Part shown: positions 7,362 to 44,162 of the stretch, in pieces | Layout of the letters: every line of letters starts with the position of its first letter | How positions within the stretch are numbered: the stretch's first letter is position 1 | Assembly (NCBI GenBank): GCA_020632195.1 | Contig: JACKGA010000002.1 | Coordinates: 2,896-66,895 of the forward strand | Direction of reading: 5' to 3' | DNA: 64,000 bases | Origin: Candidatus Nomurabacteria bacterium | Lineage (GTDB): Bacteria; Patescibacteriota; Minisyncoccia; Phycocordibacterales; UBA1006 | The notes under the pieces: model-generated | Seen by the model: the letters and a program-made list of their open reading frames with translations, nothing else | Told to the model about the DNA's origin: nothing | Databases searched by the model: none | Made by a program: the position numbers and the translations under genes

Positions 7362-7387
7362 ACGGGGCTACAGCTAAGTAGTCCCGT
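7362..7387 (+). terminator. 10-bp hairpin (terminator-like) after a 45-codon ORF
   Basis: ACGGGGCTAC agctaa GTAGTCCCGT followed by TTAATGTTT. Follows a small ORF at 7217-7354. Confidence 0.4.
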
Positions 7388-7593
7388 TTAATGTTTAGGC
7401 ATATCTAGAAATTATGTGTTGCTGTGGAAAACTTTTACTTGCAGAGAATTATGGGCGTGTTAGAAAGGAAATATGCAAAAGAGTTATTACAACACATGGT
7501 TCAAGCACATTTGCCGATTTGCCCCGCAATCGAGTGTTTGTCTATGTGTTGGAATATAAGTGTAAAGAATCTCTTTCTTATATCCAAACTATA

Positions 7594-9566: not shown

Positions 9567-10895
9567 TTACTTTCCTTCAAAAAACATCCGGCTAAATTTC
9601 AGTGCCTTGTTCAGCAATGAAATACGGAAATTTTCGTGCACACCATGCATATTACAATCATCTCCTGCCATAGATACCGACAATACATTTTTCTTGAGAG
9701 TGTTTTTGAAATCAGTAAAAATAGGGATTGATCCGCCACAGTGATTAAAAGCAACTTCTTTACCATATGCTTTTTTGAGGAGCTTTCGTACGTGTAGCGC
9801 CATGGGTGTATCTATCGGAAATCCGACAGCATCACCATGACCTTCAATTTCTACGACAGCCTCTACGTATGGCGGGGTATTCTTTTTGATATGTTGTGCA
9901 ACCGACTTCATCACAGCGGCTGTTTTTTGCCCCATAACCGTACGAATATTGATACGCGCATCAGCATAATCCGGTACGATATTTTGAAAACCAATACCCG
10001 TATATCCAGTATTGATACCAGAAATTTCCAGGGCTGGGCGCAACCCTGTTTGAGTGAAGAAATCATTTCCCTTTTCACACAAAAGGGTTTTCACTCCGCC
10101 GAGTTTTTTAATGCCTGCGGCACTTCCCAGGCCTTTGTTATTCTTACGCTGAGCATCAGTTATTGTTGGTGCACCTTTGTAAAAACCAGATACACTAACT
10201 TTATTATTCTTATCTTTCAGAGTTGCCAACATTTCCGTCATTGCCTGGGATGCACTTGGCACAGCCCCTCCCCAGATTCCTGAGTGAAATGCGTTTGGTG
10301 CAGTCCGGTAGGTTACTTTTATGTTTCCTCCACCTCGGAATGTTAGATCTATGGTTGGGCGATCATCGATCGTCTCACCATCCGATACCATAATATGGTC
10401 ACATGCCATAAGGCTTGCGTATTCTTTGAGTAAAAGAGGAAGTTCATCGTTGCCTGATTCTTCATTCCCCTCAATCAAAAATTTTACATTATACGCAAGC
10501 TGTCCCTTTTTTATCAAATCAAGCACAGTATAAATATGGACCATGACCTGCCCTTTATTATCTATAGCTCCACGAGCAATTAATTGCGTCTTGGTCTCTG
10601 TGAGTGTGAATGGGTCTAAATCCCAGCCATCAGATTTTTTTGCAGGCTGCACATCATAGTGACCATAGATCAAAATAGTTTCATAAGAAGAATCAGCAAC
10701 ATAACTTGCAAACACAACAGGGTTTGTCGTCTCTCCCTTGAGAAGCTTGGTTTTGAAACCTGATTCTGAAAAAATATCTTTCAGCCACTGTGCTGTTGCT
10801 TTAGACTCTTTTGCAAAAGCTGGGTCAGTTGAAATACTTTTGAAAGAGATAAATTCTTTTAATAATCTTGTGTACTCTTTTGGTAGCGTGCTCAT
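9567..10895 (-). CDS. M20 family dipeptidase
   Basis: ILIYGHYDVQPA and EGNEESG metal-ligand motifs of peptidase M20. Start moved to the ATG at 10895 (MSTLPKEY), which removes the overlap with the upstream gene. Confidence 0.8.
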   Translation of the reverse strand: MSTLPKEYTRLLKEFISFKSISTDPAFAKESKATAQWLKDIFSESGFKTKLLKGETTNPVVFASYVADSSYETILIYGHYDVQPAKKSDGWDLDPFTLTETKTQLIARGAIDNKGQVMVHIYTVLDLIKKGQLAYNVKFLIEGNEESGNDELPLLLKEYASLMACDHIMVSDGETIDDRPTIDLTFRGGGNIKVTYRTAPNAFHSGIWGGAVPSASQAMTEMLATLKDKNNKVSVSGFYKGAPTITDAQRKNNKGLGSAAGIKKLGGVKTLLCEKGNDFFTQTGLRPALEISGINTGYTGIGFQNIVPDYADARINIRTVMGQKTAAVMKSVAQHIKKNTPPYVEAVVEIEGHGDAVGFPIDTPMALHVRKLLKKAYGKEVAFNHCGGSIPIFTDFKNTLKKNVLSVSMAGDDCNMHGVHENFRISLLNKALKFSRMFFEGK

Positions 10896-12173: not shown

Positions 12174-12818
12174 TTATCCAATATGTGTATATTCACCACC
12201 TGCAGACAATGGAACGAACTGGGTTTCGTGTATTGCAAAAGCATGATCGGCAATTCTCATGTGAGTGTCTTGTAGTGCTGGGACAAGGATTGACTCGTGC
12301 ATAGGAATCACTACTCGCGCGCCAAGTGACCCAGCCCAAACAATACTTTTTTTCGCCTGGGTAAAGGGTCCCGCAATACAAAACATTGCAACTTCAGGAG
12401 TAAAATCAAGTGGGTTAAAAGCGTCCCCTGGGAAAAATACTTTTTCATTGATATAAAAACCAATGTTTTTGACCATACCGAATTGATTATAAATTTCTTC
12501 ATGCCATTCCCCTACGGCCCGTATGGTGATTCCCTCATACTCAAGAATATCCCCATCTGTCATGATTTCTGATTCAATATTTTCATCTTGTAAAAGGTCG
12601 TAAACAGATTCATTGGTATAAATTTTTAAATCAGGATTGAGATCGAGAAGTTTTTGTATATTTTCCACCTGGTAGTGATCTCCATGTTCATGCGAAAGCA
12701 ATAACACATCTGCTCGTAGCAAATCAACAGGATCGACAAAACTTCCTGGATCGGTAATGAAAACGATACCGTCAGTAGTAATAGTAAAGCAGCAGTGGTT
12801 GATTTTTTTGATAAGCAT
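12174..12818 (-). CDS. MBL-fold metallo-hydrolase
   Basis: HxHxDH motif (LLLSHEHGDHY). 214 aa. Confidence 0.75.
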   Translation of the reverse strand: MLIKKINHCCFTITTDGIVFITDPGSFVDPVDLLRADVLLLSHEHGDHYQVENIQKLLDLNPDLKIYTNESVYDLLQDENIESEIMTDGDILEYEGITIRAVGEWHEEIYNQFGMVKNIGFYINEKVFFPGDAFNPLDFTPEVAMFCIAGPFTQAKKSIVWAGSLGARVVIPMHESILVPALQDTHMRIADHAFAIHETQFVPLSAGGEYTHIG

Positions 12819-12892
12819 AGCAACTATATTATATCACATGCAAAAACACCCAGACATCAGATGGTGCGGGGTGTTTTCTAAAAAAGTTAAAG

Positions 12893-15382: not shown

Positions 15383-15456
15383 GTCGGAGTAGCTCAGATG
15401 GTTAGAGCGCAGCACTCATAACGCTGAGGTCGTGAGTTCAATCCTCACCTCCGACA
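15383..15456 (+). tRNA. tRNA with CAU anticodon (elongator Met or Ile2-type), no encoded CCA
   Basis: Hand-folded cloverleaf: acceptor GUCGGAG/CUCCGAC, anticodon loop CUCAUAA, T-loop GUUCAAUCC. 74 nt. Confidence 0.8.
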
Positions 15457-15515
15457 CACGTCTTGTCCATCTAGATTTTTGTGATACAATCGCTGGGTCT
15501 GAAAAGGACATATAT

Positions 15516-15589
15516 GCAGCGGTAGCTCAACTGGTTAGAGCACCCGCCTGTCACGCGGGAGGTTGCGAGTTCGAGTCTCGTCCGTTGCG
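15516..15589 (+). tRNA. tRNA-Asp (GUC), no encoded CCA
   Basis: Acceptor GCAGCGG/CCGUUGC, anticodon stem CCCGC/GCGGG with loop CUGUCAC, T-arm GCGAGUUCGAGUCUCGU. Confidence 0.85.
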
Positions 15590-15598
15590 CATAATAAT

Positions 15599-15630
15599 AA
15601 AATCCTATAGAAAATATAGGATTTTATTAT
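15599..15630 (+). terminator. Rho-independent terminator after tRNA-Asp
   Basis: AAAATCCTATA gaaaa TATAGGATTTT followed by ATTATTT. Confidence 0.6.
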
Positions 15631-15672
15631 TTGCATGAGCACTTCTTTTATGCTACAGTCCTCATCATTCAT

Positions 15673-15743
15673 CGCGGGATAGAGTAATGGTATCTCGTCA
15701 GGCTCATAACCTGAAGACCCTGGTTCGAATCCAGGTCCCGCAA
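15673..15743 (+). tRNA. Initiator tRNA-fMet (CAU), no encoded CCA
   Basis: CGCGGGA...UCCCGCA gives the bacterial-initiator C1:A72 mismatch. Anticodon loop CUCAUAA. Overall close to the E. coli tRNA-fMet pattern. Confidence 0.8.
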
Positions 15744-15752
15744 CAATGAAGA

Positions 15753-38669: not shown

Positions 38670-38740
38670 TCGATACTTTTTTCTTAATGCGGGCCACGTG
38701 AGTTAAGTGCCCACACTTCCAAGCACCACAAGGGTTTCTA
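38670..38740. repeat. Junction module copy R3
   Basis: TCGATACTTTTTTCTTAA-TGCGG-GCCACGTGAGTTAAG... The 53-nt right part is identical to R1. Confidence 0.85.
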
Positions 38741-38781
38741 GAGGTATATTCTGAAATAGGAATAAGGAGTGCGGGTCAACA

Positions 38782-39477
38782 TTATTTATCTAATAGATTT
38801 ACAGATTCAGCAATTTGCTTAATTTCGGGGAAACTATCTGAGTAGCCACTAAATGCAAGTCCACCAAATTTTTCAAAAGGGAGCTTAACTAAAATATCAA
38901 TCAAATGCAGGTCATCCCTACTTCCTGACAGTATCTCATTACAATATCCCGCATCTGACCCTGGTTGTTTATAGAAATCCTCACAAGAAAATGGATTTCG
39001 TTCAACTGCCCAGCTGTCTAGGTTAGCTCTTTCTAGTTGAGAGATGTTAAGAGCTGTTTCAGTTCCGTTCGTACTGTAAGCAACATACTCAGGAACTACA
39101 AAACCATCTGCATCTGAAAAGCCAATAACAAACTTATTAAGATATCCACTTCCTTCGCTATATCGGTAATCTTTTGAAGATGCAAAGAAGTGCATCTCAT
39201 CACTTTTATGGTTAATTAGCTTTCCAATAAAAATCTTCCCCTGGGCTATCTTGTGACCACCTAGACTATCACACGGCATATTTTCTACACAGATTTCAGA
39301 AAAAATTTTGTATTCTTTTGGGTAATAAAAACTAATACCTAGAGTTTCATTACGATACTCTAAAAGATTAGTGTTTCTTTGGATCTCATTGTGTGACAAA
39401 TCTTTTTCACGAGAAGTAAAAATGAACAATACTAACAATAAAGCTATTAATAAAAAGGGTAAGATATATTTTTTCAT
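38782..39477 (-). CDS. Hypothetical secreted protein (cassette gene 3)
   Basis: 231 aa with an N-terminal signal/TM (YILPFLLIALLLVLFIF). No family recognised. Confidence 0.55.
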   Translation of the reverse strand: MKKYILPFLLIALLLVLFIFTSREKDLSHNEIQRNTNLLEYRNETLGISFYYPKEYKIFSEICVENMPCDSLGGHKIAQGKIFIGKLINHKSDEMHFFASSKDYRYSEGSGYLNKFVIGFSDADGFVVPEYVAYSTNGTETALNISQLERANLDSWAVERNPFSCEDFYKQPGSDAGYCNEILSGSRDDLHLIDILVKLPFEKFGGLAFSGYSDSFPEIKQIAESVNLLDK

Positions 39478-39540
39478 ATATTTTAATTATAACACAAAAA
39501 CCACCTTCCTAGGTGGCTTCTGTTTTACAGACTATCTGGG

Positions 39541-39584
39541 TCTATCCGATACTTTTTTCTTACTGCGGAGAGTAAGGGATTCGG
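39541..39584. repeat. Junction module copy R4 carrying a 19-nt tRNA-Ser 3' fragment
   Basis: TCTATCCGATACTTTTTTCTTAC-TGCGG-AGAGTAAGGGATTCG. GCGGAGAGTAAGGGATTCG equals 43300-43318 of the intact tRNA-Ser. The left 80 nt parallels 37151-37220. Confidence 0.8.
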
Positions 39585-39684
39585 TCACCACTGTGGATCC
39601 TCGCTAAAATCTTTCAGATTTTACTGCGGTCTCACAGTCTCGACCCCGATTTTTCTCACCCTATACTCTCTCGCTCGCAAACAA

Positions 39685-39709
39685 AAACAAACGCTATTCG
39701 CGTTTGTTT
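39685..39709 (-). terminator. Probable native terminator of tRNA-Ser, now separated from it by the inserted element
   Basis: AAACAAACGC tattc GCGTTTGTTT. On the minus strand it is followed by UUGUUUG. It lies 8 nt outside the element boundary core at 39718-39721. Confidence 0.5.
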
Positions 39710-39717
39710 TCTAGCTC

Positions 39718-39943
39718 GCGGTGTTTGTTGGACAAAGTTCGAAACTATTTCGAGCAAAATCCAAATGATTAAAACTACTAAAAAGGACTCGGCAGGGCGA
39801 AACAATTTGTCTGGGGTTTCGGATTCGCCCTGCCTCGGCTGATTTCCCGCCCGCAGGAGGGGTCTGGGGAGGAATGCGGGCGGGTTTCGGAACCCTTTTT
39901 CCAAAAACGAATTTTGAATTTTGTTTTTCAAAATGCGTCGCCT
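39718..39943 (-). repeat. Inverted repeat X, left copy (226 bp; partner 41443-41668)
   Basis: The reverse complement matches 41443-41668 with one substitution seen (TTTTTGGAAAAAGGG vs TTTTTGAAAAAAGGG). Confidence 0.9.
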
Positions 39944-39954
39944 AAACCTTAAAA

Positions 39955-40323
39955 CTACAAATTCACTTTATCTTTATCAACCTCTTTCTTAAATTTTACC
40001 CTATCCAAATTTTCCAATTGCCTTTCCGTTAATTTTACATCAATAATTTTTCCGATACCAACTTTTAGCCCAGTAGCATTTAATAATCTAATTAAAGCCA
40101 ATTGATTCATAAGCTGATTTCGCATTTTTTCATTTTGATTTAAAATTTCTGAATTTTCCTCTAACGCTCCCATGGCTTCTTCCATTACCTGTTTATTTTC
40201 ACCTTTAACAACGCTACCGAGTTTAAATGTCCACTTGCCGTCTTGTTGATGAAATAAAACATTTTCCTGCCCAACTAAATCAATAAATTTCCCTGATGCT
40301 TCAAAATATTCCTTGAATCTCAA
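39955..40323 (-). CDS. Hypothetical protein (element cargo; start uncertain, TTG)
   Basis: 122-aa ORF in the same frame as the upstream 98-aa ORF, separated from it by three stop codons. No ATG start. Confidence 0.35.
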   Translation of the reverse strand: MRFKEYFEASGKFIDLVGQENVLFHQQDGKWTFKLGSVVKGENKQVMEEAMGALEENSEILNQNEKMRNQLMNQLALIRLLNATGLKVGIGKIIDVKLTERQLENLDRVKFKKEVDKDKVNL

Positions 40324-40398
40324 TAAAAATTCTCTCGCACAATCTGCAAATTCTTTTTGTCTTTATCCGTTAGCTCAAAAATTGATTTTAATTTTTCG

Positions 40399-40695
40399 TT
40401 AAATTTCAAAAAGTCTTTTTTCATCAAATTCGCCACCACCTAAAAGTGCTTTATTCATTTTGTCATAAGCTTCTCTATTTTCCTCAACAGACGGGTCTTG
40501 CTCAGTATAGCCAGTAATAAAATCTTTTTTGTTCGGGTCTTTAAAAATATCACTCGCTTCCTGTATTGAAATTACACCCTCAATATTTTGCGAAATACCG
40601 TCTTGTTCAACACTTATTTTTGCACCAATACTTTTCACGCAAACAGTGTTCCTGCCCAAAATGTTTGTATAACTGTTCATTTTTACTATTTTCAC
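40399..40695 (-). CDS. Hypothetical protein (element cargo)
   Basis: 98-aa ORF whose ATG overlaps the stop of the upstream frameshifted gene (ATGA). Confidence 0.4.
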   Translation of the reverse strand: MKIVKMNSYTNILGRNTVCVKSIGAKISVEQDGISQNIEGVISIQEASDIFKDPNKKDFITGYTEQDPSVEENREAYDKMNKALLGGGEFDEKRLFEI

Positions 40696-41136
40696 CCCTC
40701 TACATATTCGTCTGCTATTTTTCGCACTTCGGGTGGCAATTCCGCTTGTCCTATACTGCGTGCTTTTTCTAAAGCACCACGATTTAATTTAATAACAAAT
40801 GTTGGTTTTTGGGGATAGATAAAAAACATCATGAGTGCCACCATGTCCGACTCTTTGCAGCTGACTGAAATCAATAAATCCTTCCTTGTTTGGCAATTCA
40901 CTTATAAAGGATTGAATTTTTGTATCTTCACTTTCTATGCCGAGCCGTTCTCTAATCTCCTCAATCTTATTTTGATCATCAATTTTTCTTTGGATAGTTT
41001 CTATTTGCTTTGCGTTATCTGTGCCCACCTCTTGTTGTGACTGACCTGAAACTATTTCGGCTTGCGGTATTTCCGTGGCTTTCTTTTCTTCTTCCGGATT
41101 TTTTGGTTGCATAAATTTTGCTTCAAAATTTTTCAT
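40692..41136 (-). pseudogene. Frameshifted hypothetical gene (two overlapping ORFs joined at a T6 run)
   Basis: ORFs 40789-41136 and 40692-40901 become one reading frame (...VGHGGTHDVF|IYPQKPTFVIKLNRGAL...) if one T is removed from the T6 run (plus-strand A6 at 40821-40826). Confidence 0.5.
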
Positions 41137-41355
41137 AAAAAATATTTCATTAAATCATCAATTGAAACATCTAACCCTTTGGCAATTTTTGCCATAGTTT
41201 CAATAAGTCGGGTTAGGTGTTGCCCCGGACTCAACTTTGATAATCACATTGTAAGCAATATCGGCAAGCTTAGAGAGTTTATCCTGCGAAATACCGAGTT
41301 TTTCTCTGTATTTCTTTATATTCTTTGCAATTGTTGGTAATTCTTTTGACTTCAT
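41133..41355 (-). pseudogene. XRE-family helix-turn-helix regulator, frameshifted
   Basis: MKSKELPTIAKNIKKYREKLGISQDKLSKLADIAYNVIIKVESGATPNPT then a premature TGA (41200-41202). A shift of one base restores IETMAKIAKGLDVSIDDLMKYFL, ending in an ATGA overlap with the next gene. The span is 223 nt, which is 3n+1. Confidence 0.6.
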
Positions 41356-41442
41356 AGTATAATTATACTAGTATAGATAGTGGGATAAGTTTTACTACTA
41401 TAACTTTACCAAATAAAATGAATTTAATCAAACAAAATTTGG

Positions 41443-41784
41443 AGGCGACGCATTTTGAAAAACAAAATTCAAAATTCGTTTTTGAAAAAAGGGTTCCGAA
41501 ACCCGCCCGCATTCCTCCCCAGACCCCTCCTGCGGGCGGGAAATCAGCCGAGGCAGGGCGAATCCGAAACCCCAGACAAATTGTTTCGCCCTGCCGAGTC
41601 CTTTTTAGTAGTTTTAATCATTTGGATTTTGCTCGAAATAGTTTCGAACTTTGTCCAACAAACACCGCCAAAATTGAAAATCGGAATCGGAAGCAAAAAT
41701 GCGGTCGGCGCGAAGCGCCGTCTGTTCTGAATTCCCCCCAAAAAATCCTGAATCTGAAAGGGTTCGCCACGCTCCGCGTGGCTC
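41443..41784 (+). repeat. Central uninterrupted X+Y module (attP-like), 342 bp, immediately upstream of the recombinase ATG
   Basis: 41443-41668 is the inverted copy of 39718-39943. 41665-41784 is the inverted copy of 43184-43303. The two overlap on CCGC at 41665-41668. Confidence 0.9.
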
Positions 41785-41803
41785 CTCGTTTGTCAATACA
41801 ATT

Positions 41804-43327
41804 ATGAATAATCAAACCAAAAAGTTTTTCATATATACTCGCAAGTCAACGGACGACAAAGACAGACAAGTCCGCAGTATTTCTGACCAACTAGCGGAAT
41901 TGAAAAGTTTAGCATTGAAAGAACAACTGGAAGTAGTGGATGTCTTTGTCGAAAAGCAGACCGCCAAAATACCAGGTCGTCCGGTGTTTGGTGAAATGAT
42001 AGAGCGAATGGAGAAAGGCGAAGCGTCTGGTATTTTGGCGTGGCATCCCGATAGACTTGCGAGAAATAGCGTTGATGGTGGAAAAATTATTTATCTTGTT
42101 GATACTGGCGTAATTTCAGAAATGAAATTTCCAACTTTTTGGTTTGATCCGACACCGCAAGGCAAATTCATGCTCTCAATCGCTTTTTCGCAATCCAAGT
42201 ATTATGTAGACAATTTGAGCGAGAATATTAAGCGCGGACATAGGAACAAAGTGAAGGAAGGAATATGGCCTCAAATGGCTCCGCTTGGATATGTGAACAA
42301 AAATAGACGAATTGTGCCTGATGAAAATATCGCACCTTTAATCAAGAAAGCATTTGAGGCATATTCGTCTGGGTCTTTCACTTTGCGCCAACTCCGCGAC
42401 AAATTTAATGTACTTGGATTGAAGCGAAAAAGCGGCAGAGAGCTTGCGGTGTCGAATTATCAAAAACTTCTCAAAAATCCCATTTACACAGGTTTAATGC
42501 TTTACAATGGTGAGATTTTTGAGGGTAAGCACGAACCGATTATTTCAAAGAAACTTTTTGATTCCGTTCAAGAAGTGATGATGAGGAAATCTAAACCAAA
42601 GTCGCGAGGATTGAAACCATTTTTGTATAGAGGATTTTTCCGTTGTGGCGAGTGTGGGTGCTTCATCACCACCGAAACACAAAAAGGTCATAATTATCTC
42701 CGCTGTACCAAACGGAAAAATCCTTGTTCGCAAAAATATACTCGTGAGGAAATCATCACTTCCGAAATTCAAAAGGAAATCAAAAAAGTTTCTTTGCCAG
42801 ACGACTGGGCTTCTTGGATGTTGTCGGAAAATGAAAAAGATAAAATGGTGGAAGCCCAATCGTCTACGCTTTTTGCAGACAAAACAAAAGCCGATATTTC
42901 TCTCTTGAATTCTAAAATTGAGAAGCTGATGAATGCTTATCTCGAAAGTGCTCTCTCGCTAGACGAGTATCGAGATATGAAAAACAAACTTGTGAACGAA
43001 AAACAGCTTCTCAAAGAGAAATTATCGGCTTTTGAGCAAAAAGCGAATAATCGGTTCGAACTTACCGAAAAGTTTTTGAAAGACAATATAGAATTGGCAA
43101 ACGAGGGAATAAATGAAGAGAAACTTCATTTATTCAAAAAAGTCGGTTCGAACTTTCAAATTAAGGATCGAACCGTACTTTTTGAGCCACGCGGAGCGTG
43201 GCGAACCCTTTCAGATTCAGGATTTTTTGGGGGGAATTCAGAACAGACGGCGCTTCGCGCCGACCGCATTTTTGCTTCCGATTCCGATTTTCAATTTTGG
43301 CGGAGAGTAAGGGATTCGAACCCTTGA
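41804..43327 (+). CDS. Large serine recombinase (resolvase/invertase catalytic domain + recombinase domain + zinc-ribbon + coiled coil)
   Basis: FFIYTRKSTDDKDRQVRSISDQ (catalytic Ser context), AWHPDRLARN, GECGCFITTETQKGHNYLRCTKRK zinc ribbon, and a long coiled-coil C-terminus. The ATG at 41804 is chosen. The track ORF start at 41699 lies in the repeat. Confidence 0.88.
   Translation: MNNQTKKFFIYTRKSTDDKDRQVRSISDQLAELKSLALKEQLEVVDVFVEKQTAKIPGRPVFGEMIERMEKGEASGILAWHPDRLARNSVDGGKIIYLVDTGVISEMKFPTFWFDPTPQGKFMLSIAFSQSKYYVDNLSENIKRGHRNKVKEGIWPQMAPLGYVNKNRRIVPDENIAPLIKKAFEAYSSGSFTLRQLRDKFNVLGLKRKSGRELAVSNYQKLLKNPIYTGLMLYNGEIFEGKHEPIISKKLFDSVQEVMMRKSKPKSRGLKPFLYRGFFRCGECGCFITTETQKGHNYLRCTKRKNPCSQKYTREEIITSEIQKEIKKVSLPDDWASWMLSENEKDKMVEAQSSTLFADKTKADISLLNSKIEKLMNAYLESALSLDEYRDMKNKLVNEKQLLKEKLSAFEQKANNRFELTEKFLKDNIELANEGINEEKLHLFKKVGSNFQIKDRTVLFEPRGAWRTLSDSGFFGGNSEQTALRADRIFASDSDFQFWRRVRDSNP
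43184..43303 (-). repeat. Inverted repeat Y, right copy (120 bp; partner 41665-41784)
   Basis: The reverse complement is identical by eye to 41665-41784. It forms the last ~40 codons of the recombinase ORF and ends in the tRNA-Ser CCA/discriminator. Confidence 0.9.
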
Positions 43328-43387
43328 AGCTTTTTACAGCTTACTTCGTTAGCAGTGAAGCGCTTTCGACCACTCAGCCAACTCTCC
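43298..43387 (-). tRNA. tRNA-Ser (GCU), long variable arm, CCA present
   Basis: Minus strand GGAGAGUUGGCUGAGUGGUCGAAAGCGCUUCACUGCUAACGAAGUAAGCUGUAAAAAGCUUCAAGGGUUCGAAUCCCUUACUCUCCGCCA. Acceptor GGAGAGU/ACUCUCC, anticodon loop CUGCUAA. Confidence 0.88.
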
Positions 43388-43415
43388 GATGCAATGGAGC
43401 ATACTATAAAAATTC

Positions 43416-44162
43416 TTATTTTTCCAGGGGGAGCTGAATAGTAATGGTTGTTCCTTCTTTTGAGGTACTGGTAAAGGCAACTACCCCTTGGTGATCCTCG
43501 ACAATCTTCCTTACTGTAAAAAGACCCATTCCCGTACCAGGGGTTTGTGATGTCCGCGCAAGAGATCCGCGGGTATATTTTTCAAAAATAATCTCATGGT
43601 CGCCAGGACCCAGGGTAGTACCAGGATTATGTACTCGTACGACGATATATTTGTCTGTAAGTTCAAGAGCAACACTAATCATCTCTCCTTCGGGAGTATA
43701 TTTGATGGCATTTTCAATCATATGCTCCAAGACAATGGTCATTTTATTTTTATCTATCCTGATATGAGGCACTGTGCTTTTGGGGCGTTGAAATTTGATA
43801 GTCAAATTGCGTGCACGAGCCGCTGATAAAAATTGAGTCATCGTCTCTTCGATAAGCTCTTCTACATCACTCTCTTCAAAAGTATATTGAAACGTCCACA
43901 CTTGAGCTTTATTGGCACGAGAGAGTTCTTCGAGCAGGTCAACCATACGCTCATTACTCCGATACCCTTCACGCAAGATATGAAGCTGTTCTTCAGAAAA
44001 ATGTGCTAGGTCGCCATCGAGCAACATTTTGAGAGTCCACTTGGTGCCTGATAGTGGCGTGCGCAATTCGTGCACAATCATCGAGATAAACTCTTGCTGC
44101 TGCTTTTGGGCTTCTTCCAATTCTTTGAGCTGACTTTGTGTTGAGCGGTTATGATTCGTCAT
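43416..44162 (-). CDS. Cytoplasmic sensor histidine kinase (HisKA + HATPase_c only)
   Basis: H-box FISMIVHELRTPLSG, N-box IENAIKYT, G-boxes GTGMGL. No TM or sensor domain. Start set at the ATG at 44162. Confidence 0.8.
   Translation of the reverse strand: MTNHNRSTQSQLKELEEAQKQQQEFISMIVHELRTPLSGTKWTLKMLLDGDLAHFSEEQLHILREGYRSNERMVDLLEELSRANKAQVWTFQYTFEESDVEELIEETMTQFLSAARARNLTIKFQRPKSTVPHIRIDKNKMTIVLEHMIENAIKYTPEGEMISVALELTDKYIVVRVHNPGTTLGPGDHEIIFEKYTRGSLARTSQTPGTGMGLFTVRKIVEDHQGVVAFTSTSKEGTTITIQLPLEK

Follow-up and report, generated by a model that had tools for sequence, protein, structure and literature searches.

Large serine integrases such as those of phiC31, Bxb1 and A118 contain Resolvase, Recombinase and zinc-ribbon domains and insert DNA between hybrid attL and attR sites that share a very short core, without a long duplication. 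The window analyzed here, a stretch of 64,000 nucleotides from contig JACKGA010000002.1 of a Candidatus Nomurabacteria bacterium, contains an element of 3,582 bp (with the core counted once) that is organized in the same way and shows the same strict polarity in the junctions that we surveyed. We consider it very probable that a large serine recombinase (LSR) integrated this element at the extreme 3' end of a tRNA-Ser(GCT) gene in a Patescibacteria chromosome, leaving a canonical pair of attL and attR sites. Unlike phiC31, Bxb1 and A118, the element has as its target the terminal bases of a tRNA gene, not a gene that encodes a protein, and carries a second, inverted attP and perfect inverted repeats of 120-226 nt, and its recombinase has no close relative in viral contigs.

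Other described systems resemble the locus in part; our comparisons with phiC31, Bxb1 and A118, with P4, HP1 and SSV1, and with the 2-micron plasmid and P1 rest on established knowledge. In staphylococci, the staphylococcal cassette chromosome (SCC) and its Ccr recombinases likewise use an LSR to place cargo at the 3' terminus of a housekeeping gene that is conserved and stays active, and SCC forms tandem arrays at one site, as two elements do at one of our loci (L006); however, the recombinase studied here is not a Ccr orthologue, its target is tRNA-Ser rather than rlmH, and its repeats are long and inverted, whereas those of SCC are short and direct. Islands and phages of the P4, HP1 and SSV1 type, which target tRNA genes by means of tyrosine integrases, also integrate into the 3' part of such a gene and restore the displaced bases. 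In contrast to these, only 2-6 nt are replaced here instead of the usual duplicated segment of 15-50 nt, the recombinase is of the serine type, and a 19-nt repeat found nearby is a host feature outside attL. The yeast 2-micron plasmid (FLP) and the C segment of phage P1 (Cin) have in common with the element two unique segments between inverted repeats of the crossover site, with the recombinase gene inside one segment; however, the enzyme here is an LSR rather than a tyrosine recombinase or a small invertase, and the element is integrated in the chromosome via one copy and is known from its sequence layout, inversion being only a possibility. By analogy, the mechanism would be that of LSR integrases; the preservation of the tRNA is that of tRNA islands, and the arrays recall SCC. 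The distinctive traits are the targeting of all tRNA-Ser isoacceptors, the tiny replaced segment, the internal inverted attP with its long arms, and the extreme, phylum-wide conservation of the recombinase. The finding at this single site is correct and represents mostly ordinary mobile-element biology; the architecture of the family is more interesting.

Attachment sites and organization of the element

Two perfect inverted repeats define the element. Repeat I1 pairs 39718-39943 with 41443-41668 (226 nt, 100%), and repeat I2 pairs 41665-41784 with 43184-43303 (120 nt, 100%); the two have the bases CCGC at 41665-41668 in common, and the outer ends of both are GCGG. Read on one strand, the left site (attL) is ...TCTAGCTC-GCGG-TGTTTGTTGG..., the internal site, as its reverse complement, is ...CAATTTTG-GCGG-TGTTTGTTGG..., and the right site (attR), on the same strand as attL, is ...CAATTTTG-GCGG-AGAGTAAGGG.... 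Only GCGG is common to the sites at 39718, 41665 (reverse complement) and 43300, and there is no long target duplication. Because attL, the internal attP and attR have no longer stretch in common than GCGG, we place the crossover within it. With the arms of I1 named a and a' and those of I2 named b and b' (Table 1), the reverse complement of the internal attP is the b'-core-a joint that is expected from excision.

The tRNA-Ser(GCT) gene ends ...CCCUUACUCUCC-G-CCA on the minus strand, its body through G73 occupying 43301-43387 and C74 lying at 43300. The original prediction, made from the letters of the window, had equated the right core (43300-43303) with C71, C72, G73 and C74, and our reading of the sequence agrees: plus-strand positions 43303, 43302, 43301, 43300, 43299 and 43298 are C71, C72, G73, C74, C75 and A76, respectively. 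The 3' end that it gave for the tRNA is also the one returned by two finders, ARAGORN and the Rfam tRNA model. The latter matched 43301-43387 end to end, up to the discriminator, and its score of 57.7 bits (gathering score, 29) is in line with the claim that a functional-looking tRNA was preserved. Our repeat search showed that 43299-43184 is a 100% identical inverted repeat of the internal copy at 41669-41784; C75 and A76, with which CAAAATTG... starts, are therefore element sequence. The three other tRNAs in the window (15383-15744) lead to the same conclusion, since their discriminators are followed by CAC, CAU and CAA and CCA is encoded in none of the three. Both the absence of an encoded CCA from these tRNAs and the derivation of the final CA of CCGCCA from the element had been predicted, and both hold: C75 and A76 (43299 and 43298) originate from the element. 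The anatomy of the sites, the enzyme domains, the source of the CA and the empty site described below are established directly.

The enzyme matched PF00239 (Resolvase; E value, 6e-19; residues 9-154) and, C-terminal to this catalytic domain, PF07508 (Recombinase; 5e-14) and PF13408 (Zn_ribbon_recom; 4e-7), a combination that identifies it as an LSR. The motif YTRKS(15)TDD...Q is visible in its translation, and the serine of YTRKS is presumably the nucleophile. It is an orthologue of neither CcrB, its best NCBIfam match (95.7 bits against a cut-off of 900), nor XisF (95.3 bits against a cut-off of 375). Viral contigs contained only recombinases of 25-26% identity, and a phage origin is therefore unsupported.

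Look-ups of the proteins flanking the element returned only short Logan unitigs of SRR12358676. The same attL joint is carried by one of these independently assembled unitigs, L001, which corresponds to window positions 38711-39747; a second unitig, L002, starts inside the tRNA and does not reach attR. L001 stops exactly 30 nt inside the a arm, the point at which a k=31 graph has to branch when the arm has two contexts, and this end point hints independently that SRR12358676 contains both attL and another copy of the arm. An assembly artefact, such as a mixture of integrated and circular forms or an amplification chimera, is an extremely improbable source of the inverted repeats and of the layout with three sites. 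Both repeat pairs are 100% identical and contigs of this recombinase family frequently break at the arms, as such an artefact might cause; however, the same layout was found in dozens of independent assemblies, in some of which the arms have diverged (85%, 97% and 99%), unlike those of a fold-back artefact, and these two facts in effect rule the artefact out. In addition, the joints 39943/39944 and 41442/41443 on one arm are impossible from a simple mixture of an integrated form and a circle.

Table 1. Coordinates of the element, its attachment sites and the adjoining host features in the window
Feature	Position	Strand	Remarks
tRNA-like piece	39565-39668	minus	Direct repeat D6; conserved in L003; unoccupied in the window
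Displaced native 3' flank of tRNA-Ser	39676-39717	minus	Spacer GAGCUAG 39711-39717, hairpin 39683-39711, U-rich tail
attL core GCGG	39718-39721		Start of inverted repeat I1
a arm, left copy (P' side of attP)	39722-39943		Inverted repeat I1
Cargo segment	39944-41442	minus	1,499 nt between attL and the internal attP
Intact inverted attP	41443-41784		a' arm 41443-41664, core CCGC 41665-41668, b arm 41669-41784
Large serine recombinase gene	41804-43327	plus	Pfam domains and list of open reading frames; segment between arms 1,399 nt
b' arm, right copy (P side of attP)	43184-43299		Inverted repeat I2; tRNA strand starts CAAAATTG
G+C-rich hairpin CGGCGCGAAGCGCCG in b' arm	43248-43262	minus	Terminator-like site; starts 37 nt downstream of A76
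tRNA-Ser(GCT)	43298-43387	minus	ARAGORN; one of four tRNAs that ARAGORN calls in the window
attR core GCGG (C74, G73, C72 and C71 of the tRNA)	43300-43303		End of I2; three-site comparison

The hairpin in the b' arm is conserved, with covarying pairs, in 99 distinct b arms, and it could plausibly act as a replacement terminator or as an insulator against read-through from the tRNA. The a arms (39770-39890 and 41495-41615) also hold hairpins that are G+C-rich in an A+T-rich genome, for example CCCGCCCGCA...TGCGGGCGGG and CGGCAGGGCGAA...TTCGCCCTGCC; these are conserved between the window and L006 (1-100 and 4400-4500) and could be protein-binding sites, terminators or RNA. An Rfam search of 39000-44000 at E <= 1 returned the tRNA only and gave no match for the arms or for the tRNA-like piece.

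The empty site and the displaced 3' flank

Joining the outer flanks of the element rebuilds the attB site ...CCCTTACTCTCCGC/GAGCTAGAAAAC..., in which the slash marks the joint and the tRNA continues as tRNA...CUCUCCGC/GAGCUAG-hairpin. An exact search of 185,579 species genomes for the predicted joint GAATCCCTTACTCTCCGC/GAGC yielded one contig, JAGQME010000008.1 (L003), from a metagenome-assembled genome of Candidatus Kaiserbacteria; an exact search of metagenome contigs for the empty joint gave no match. The tRNA-Ser(GCT) of L003 (7215-7302) ends G73-C74-G-A and is directly followed by GAGCACC-AAAAACAAUGC-GAGUA-GCAUUGUUUUU-GUUUGUGCGAGCGAGAGAG, that is, by a 7-nt spacer, a hairpin homologous to that of the window, and GUUUGUG, without an element and without CCA. 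The original prediction had described such an empty site and proposed to look for it in related genomes, and the intact joint of L003 provides it; the tRNA is followed there by GAGC and not by CCAAAATTG, as it would be if the latter were its native continuation. The rebuilt window site (39478-39717 plus 43300-43420) is colinear with L003, with 75% identity over 315 nt, and the tRNA-Ser itself differs at only about 5 positions. Upstream of its tRNA, L003 also contains two additional, incomplete copies of the 5' end of tRNA-Ser (CCACTCAGCCAACTCTCC), at 7380-7405 and 7540-7565, for which ARAGORN gave no tRNA call.

On the minus strand, the displaced flank reads GAGCUAG-AAAACAAACGC-GAAUA-GCGUUUGUUUU-UGUUUG. 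Its hairpin pairs 39684-39694 with 39700-39710 (11 bp, or 12 if a G-U pair is counted, around a loop of 5 nt), has a predicted folding energy of -17.2 kcal/mol (z = -3.1; 1 of 200 shuffles was equally stable) and lies 7 nt past C74 in the rebuilt site. Comparison of the arms of two sequences, AAAACAAACGC/GCGUUUGUUUU in the window and AAAAACAAUGC/GCAUUGUUUUU in L003, revealed three compensatory pair changes (C-G to A-U, A-U to C-G and C-G to U-A). Since the position and length of the hairpin were kept while three pairs changed on both sides, the hairpin appears to be under selection as a structure. A stable hairpin (-16 to -23 kcal/mol) also begins 0-8 nt past CCGC outside attL in at least eight further loci. 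These comparisons of sequence suggest that the hairpin at 39683-39711 is probably the intrinsic terminator of tRNA-Ser.

Several observations weigh against the interpretation of the locus as an LSR insertion that supplied the CCA and carried off the terminator. The crossover is confined to 4 nt and no narrower. The empty site comes from a relative, and neither an empty site nor a circle was obtained from the same population; moreover, the protein genes flanking the RNA cluster differ between the window and L003, so that L003 is not near-isogenic. The CA is not universal: among the loci surveyed below, variant b arms give CCGC/AT (L027, L030 and L060) or CCGC/AA (L024) beside called tRNA-Ser genes. 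Finally, a consensus terminator scan of the window did not call the hairpin at 39683-39711, whose stem is A/U-rich; only 4 of its 11-12 pairs are G-C, and the tail UUUUUGUUUG lies partly within the stem. Much of the U-run is paired with the A-run in the stem. A hairpin of 10 bp acting as a terminator had been predicted here: the hairpin is real and somewhat longer (11-12 bp), but its assignment as a terminator is tempered by the negative scan and by a U-run that is partly in the stem.

That the hairpin is instead a recognition feature of attB, or part of the downstream tRNA-like gene, seems improbable to us. Its low G+C content, its interrupted U-run and the failure of the consensus scan would fit this alternative, as would an A-run a few nucleotides from the core, which is common to the terminator-side half-sites of many hosts, recurs in the b arm and may be read by the recombinase; however, the compensatory changes in L003 maintain the stem, and other hosts have a non-homologous, equally placed hairpin and U-run after tRNA-Ser, as predicted for a terminator. 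The terminator and recognition roles are also mutually compatible.

The tRNA-like piece beyond the flank resembles the tRNA at both ends. Its 3' end (39565-39583) equals the tRNA-Ser 3' end over 19 nt (43300-43318), its 5' end mimics an acceptor strand joined to a T-stem strand, and its interior is variable and hairpin-rich; neither Rfam nor ARAGORN matched the piece at 39565-39668. Homologues are found in L003 (7037-7178, unoccupied) and L006 (4154-4292), and the presence of the piece in the empty L003 shows that it is not a product of the window insertion. In L006-L013, an element lies exactly at the CCGC of the homologous piece, with a hairpin and a second complete element following, and the piece therefore serves as a second target. 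Neither this target nor the inverted internal attP figures in the original prediction.

The 19-nt match raises the alternative that the true element is bounded by this direct repeat (39565-39583 and 43300-43318) in the style of tyrosine integrases, the hairpin and spacer being element DNA. A perfect 19-nt direct repeat, such as D6, is a classical sign of tRNA-targeting islands, but the element-free L003 keeps both the hairpin and the second tRNA-like copy beside its tRNA, so that the repeat is older than the insertion; the window element has no tyrosine integrase, its recombinase being of the serine type, and its arms end exactly at GCGG. We regard this alternative as very improbable and retain the boundaries at GCGG, with the tRNA-like piece as host DNA. 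A second terminator-like hairpin, on both strands, is situated at 39494-39523 between the tRNA-like piece and the start of a gene for a 231-aa secreted protein, which suggests that the piece may form its own transcription unit.

Junctions in the recombinase family and a proposed mechanism

Homologues of the recombinase number more than 7,500; the best 120 are 84-95% identical and come from sources that name several Patescibacteria classes, suggesting that the family may have spread horizontally and recently. We read the genomic contexts of three homologues and 80 metagenome loci. The recombinase gene is flanked by inverted arms of 120-131 nt that are 85-100% complementary, and exactly 1,399 nt lie between these arms in the four loci tested for repeats (L004-L007), as in the window. 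In these four, too, unique segments lie between inverted repeats that end at the core; the cargo segments of the relatives are bounded by their own arms of approximately 200 nt. The layout of the window, in which the joint terminator side/a is followed by cargo, a/b, the LSR gene and b/tRNA-Ser, recurs in L005 and in many of the 80 metagenome loci. In L005, a contig of 742 kb, the order is that of the window, at the same tRNA-Ser(GCT), beside recG.

The outer b arm abuts the 3' end of tRNA-Ser in 57 distinct flanks, always at ...CCGC, and the anticodons of these tRNAs are GCT, GGA, CGA, TGA and one called 'ACT'. Across the loci, 55 distinct junctions have the tRNA beyond the 3' end of the recombinase gene, and 2 have it beyond the 5' end. 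The two bases after CCGC are CA in 55 of the 57 distinct tRNA-like junctions and AA in the other 2; taken with the AA and AT variants mentioned above, this makes CA a conserved, not obligatory, part of attP. On the attL side, the native bases after CCGC are GA, AG, AA, AT or CA, depending on the host. The half-site combinations found in the surveyed junctions are only terminator side/tRNA, b/a, terminator side/a and b/tRNA, which correspond to attB, attP, attL and attR, respectively. The possibility that the modules move singly, as circles with a palindromic site, was set aside, since the joints a/a, b/b, a/tRNA and terminator/b were never seen. Across these junctions, the separation of tRNA-Ser from its own terminator is the rule for the recombinase family, and the supply of CA is its usual, not its sole, outcome.

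At L010 (277-2026), tRNA-Ser(CGA) is joined to a b arm, which is followed by the recombinase gene and a b arm joined to a tRNA-like piece; this is the layout that would be expected if an internal attP had recombined with a second attB, an event that would rearrange the chromosome. In L006 (1-10186), two complete elements that differ in their arm variants follow one another, and a second related recombinase starts at 9812. Taken together, the survey permits a tentative reading, to which we give somewhat less than an even chance, of a previously undescribed and highly successful Patescibacteria family, in which a near-identical LSR targets the universal ...CCGC end of every tRNA-Ser isoacceptor, in which each module (the recombinase gene and each restriction-modification or other cargo cassette) has long inverted arms, and in which the internal attP that is kept in this way builds cassette arrays. 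The internal attP would also recombine with further tRNA-Ser genes or tRNA-like decoys and so rearrange the chromosome (cf. L006 and L010), and CCGCCA at the core of attP would deliberately copy the 3' end of mature tRNA-Ser. No description of this element family was found in the literature that we searched, a search that was incomplete and hence gives no proof of novelty. One half of attB is a universally conserved segment of tRNA-Ser, which could explain the spread across Patescibacteria classes, and the family may interest those who search for integrases with portable target sites.

We propose that the tRNA gene ended ...CUCUCC-G73-C74 before the insertion, without CCA, and was followed by a 7-nt spacer and its own terminator hairpin. 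If the enzyme acts as known LSRs do, a dimer bound to attP (b arm-GCGG-a arm) and a dimer bound to attB (terminator side-GCGG-tRNA side) would exchange strands with a 2-bp stagger inside C71-C74. The exchange would have moved the terminator 3.6 kb away, outside attL, and fused the tRNA to a b arm that starts with CA, so that the gene now reads ...G73-C74-C75-A76; the CCGCCA copies the mature tRNA-Ser 3' end. Transcripts reading through the tRNA would then enter the b arm and meet its conserved G+C-rich hairpin approximately 40 nt downstream. The free form would be a circle with two inverted attP copies parting the cargo from the recombinase gene; integration of such a circle through one copy would account for the complete attP that the integrated element keeps.

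In this scheme, we infer the activity of the terminator, any consequence for processing of the 3' end and the precise dinucleotide of the crossover. The strict polarity at the surveyed junctions favours CC/GG (C71-C72), the only non-palindromic dinucleotide, as the site of exchange; however, selection against broken tRNAs could mimic such polarity. A crossover at C71-C72 would mean that G73 and C74 are element-derived as well. The dyad symmetry of attP, judged by eye, is too weak to locate the central dinucleotide.

Maturation of the tRNA, recombinase reading frame and cargo

Integration turns a CCA-less gene with a terminator 7 nt away into a CCA-encoding gene with a long trailer. That the element supplies the CCA is a fact of sequence, and any functional role is putative. 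Because three tRNAs in the window lack CCA, the host must add CCA enzymatically, and function does not depend on the CA of the element. This CA is probably tolerated, or of slight benefit, but no requirement, and the sequence of the mature tRNA-Ser is the same with or without the encoded CA. In Bacillus subtilis, an encoded CCA inhibits RNase Z, and a switch of the tRNA maturation route upon integration is conceivable. A search of the window for the GGxVRD motif of a CCA-adding enzyme gave no match, and a search for HxHxDH gave one protein (12177-12833, 219 aa), which was not confirmed as RNase Z. Approximately half of the free tRNA genes in the surveyed contigs of the family encode CCA, so that both maturation routes probably exist in the phylum.

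Selection might also have kept the CA of the element because it ensures correct maturation of tRNA-Ser after loss of the close terminator, for example because the 3' end then no longer depends on RNase Z and CCA addition or because the CA shows exonucleases where to stop as they trim the long new trailer. The frequency of CA in the distinct tRNA-like junctions and its presence in the internal attP copies speak for such selection, as does one of the exceptions (the L006 group), which lies at a tRNA-like piece without an ARAGORN call and fits a relaxed constraint; the coexistence of encoded and added CCA in the phylum also agrees with it. However, the recombinase-binding arm that contains the CA is conserved in its entirety, which reduces all copies to one observation, and two given bases match by chance in about 1 of 16 cases. 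The b arms starting with AT (L027, L030 and L060) and AA (L024) also stand beside called tRNA-Ser genes, and the host of the window copes with at least three CCA-less tRNAs and thus adds CCA enzymatically. We therefore consider selection for maturation rather unlikely and prefer to view the CA as a conserved part of attP that the host tolerates.

For an uncultured lineage, the locus defines the ends of an integrated element at the level of single bases, and it provides a natural pair of occupied and empty sites. This pair allows one to ask how a bacterium with a minimal genome matures an essential tRNA when the encoding of CCA and the place of the terminator change together.

The open reading frame (ORF) of the recombinase has no stop codon inside the element; it crosses the b' arm, and its stop codon (43325-43327) lies antisense to the tRNA. 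The lengths of the homologues range from approximately 494 to 647 aa, presumably because the tail is set by whatever flanks the element. Exact-protein look-ups of both possible recombinase ORFs gave no match.

The cargo segment contains a 51-aa ORF (41200-41355) that resembles helix-turn-helix (HTH) proteins of the HTH_3 or control-protein type and falls short of the full domain. The rest of the cargo consists of overlapping ORFs of 69-122 aa in different frames without a family match; searches of the cargo against Pfam, PADLOC and NCBIfam returned the HTH only, and the cargo of the window looks degraded or fragmented. No candidate for a recombination directionality factor was identified among the cargo ORFs, which have no family match besides the HTH. 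In related elements, the cargo position is usually occupied by an HTH gene and restriction-modification genes, including those for DpnII, EcoRI, D12 and N6_N4 methyltransferases, Type IIG enzymes and Methylase_S, which suggests one route by which defence genes may move within the phylum.

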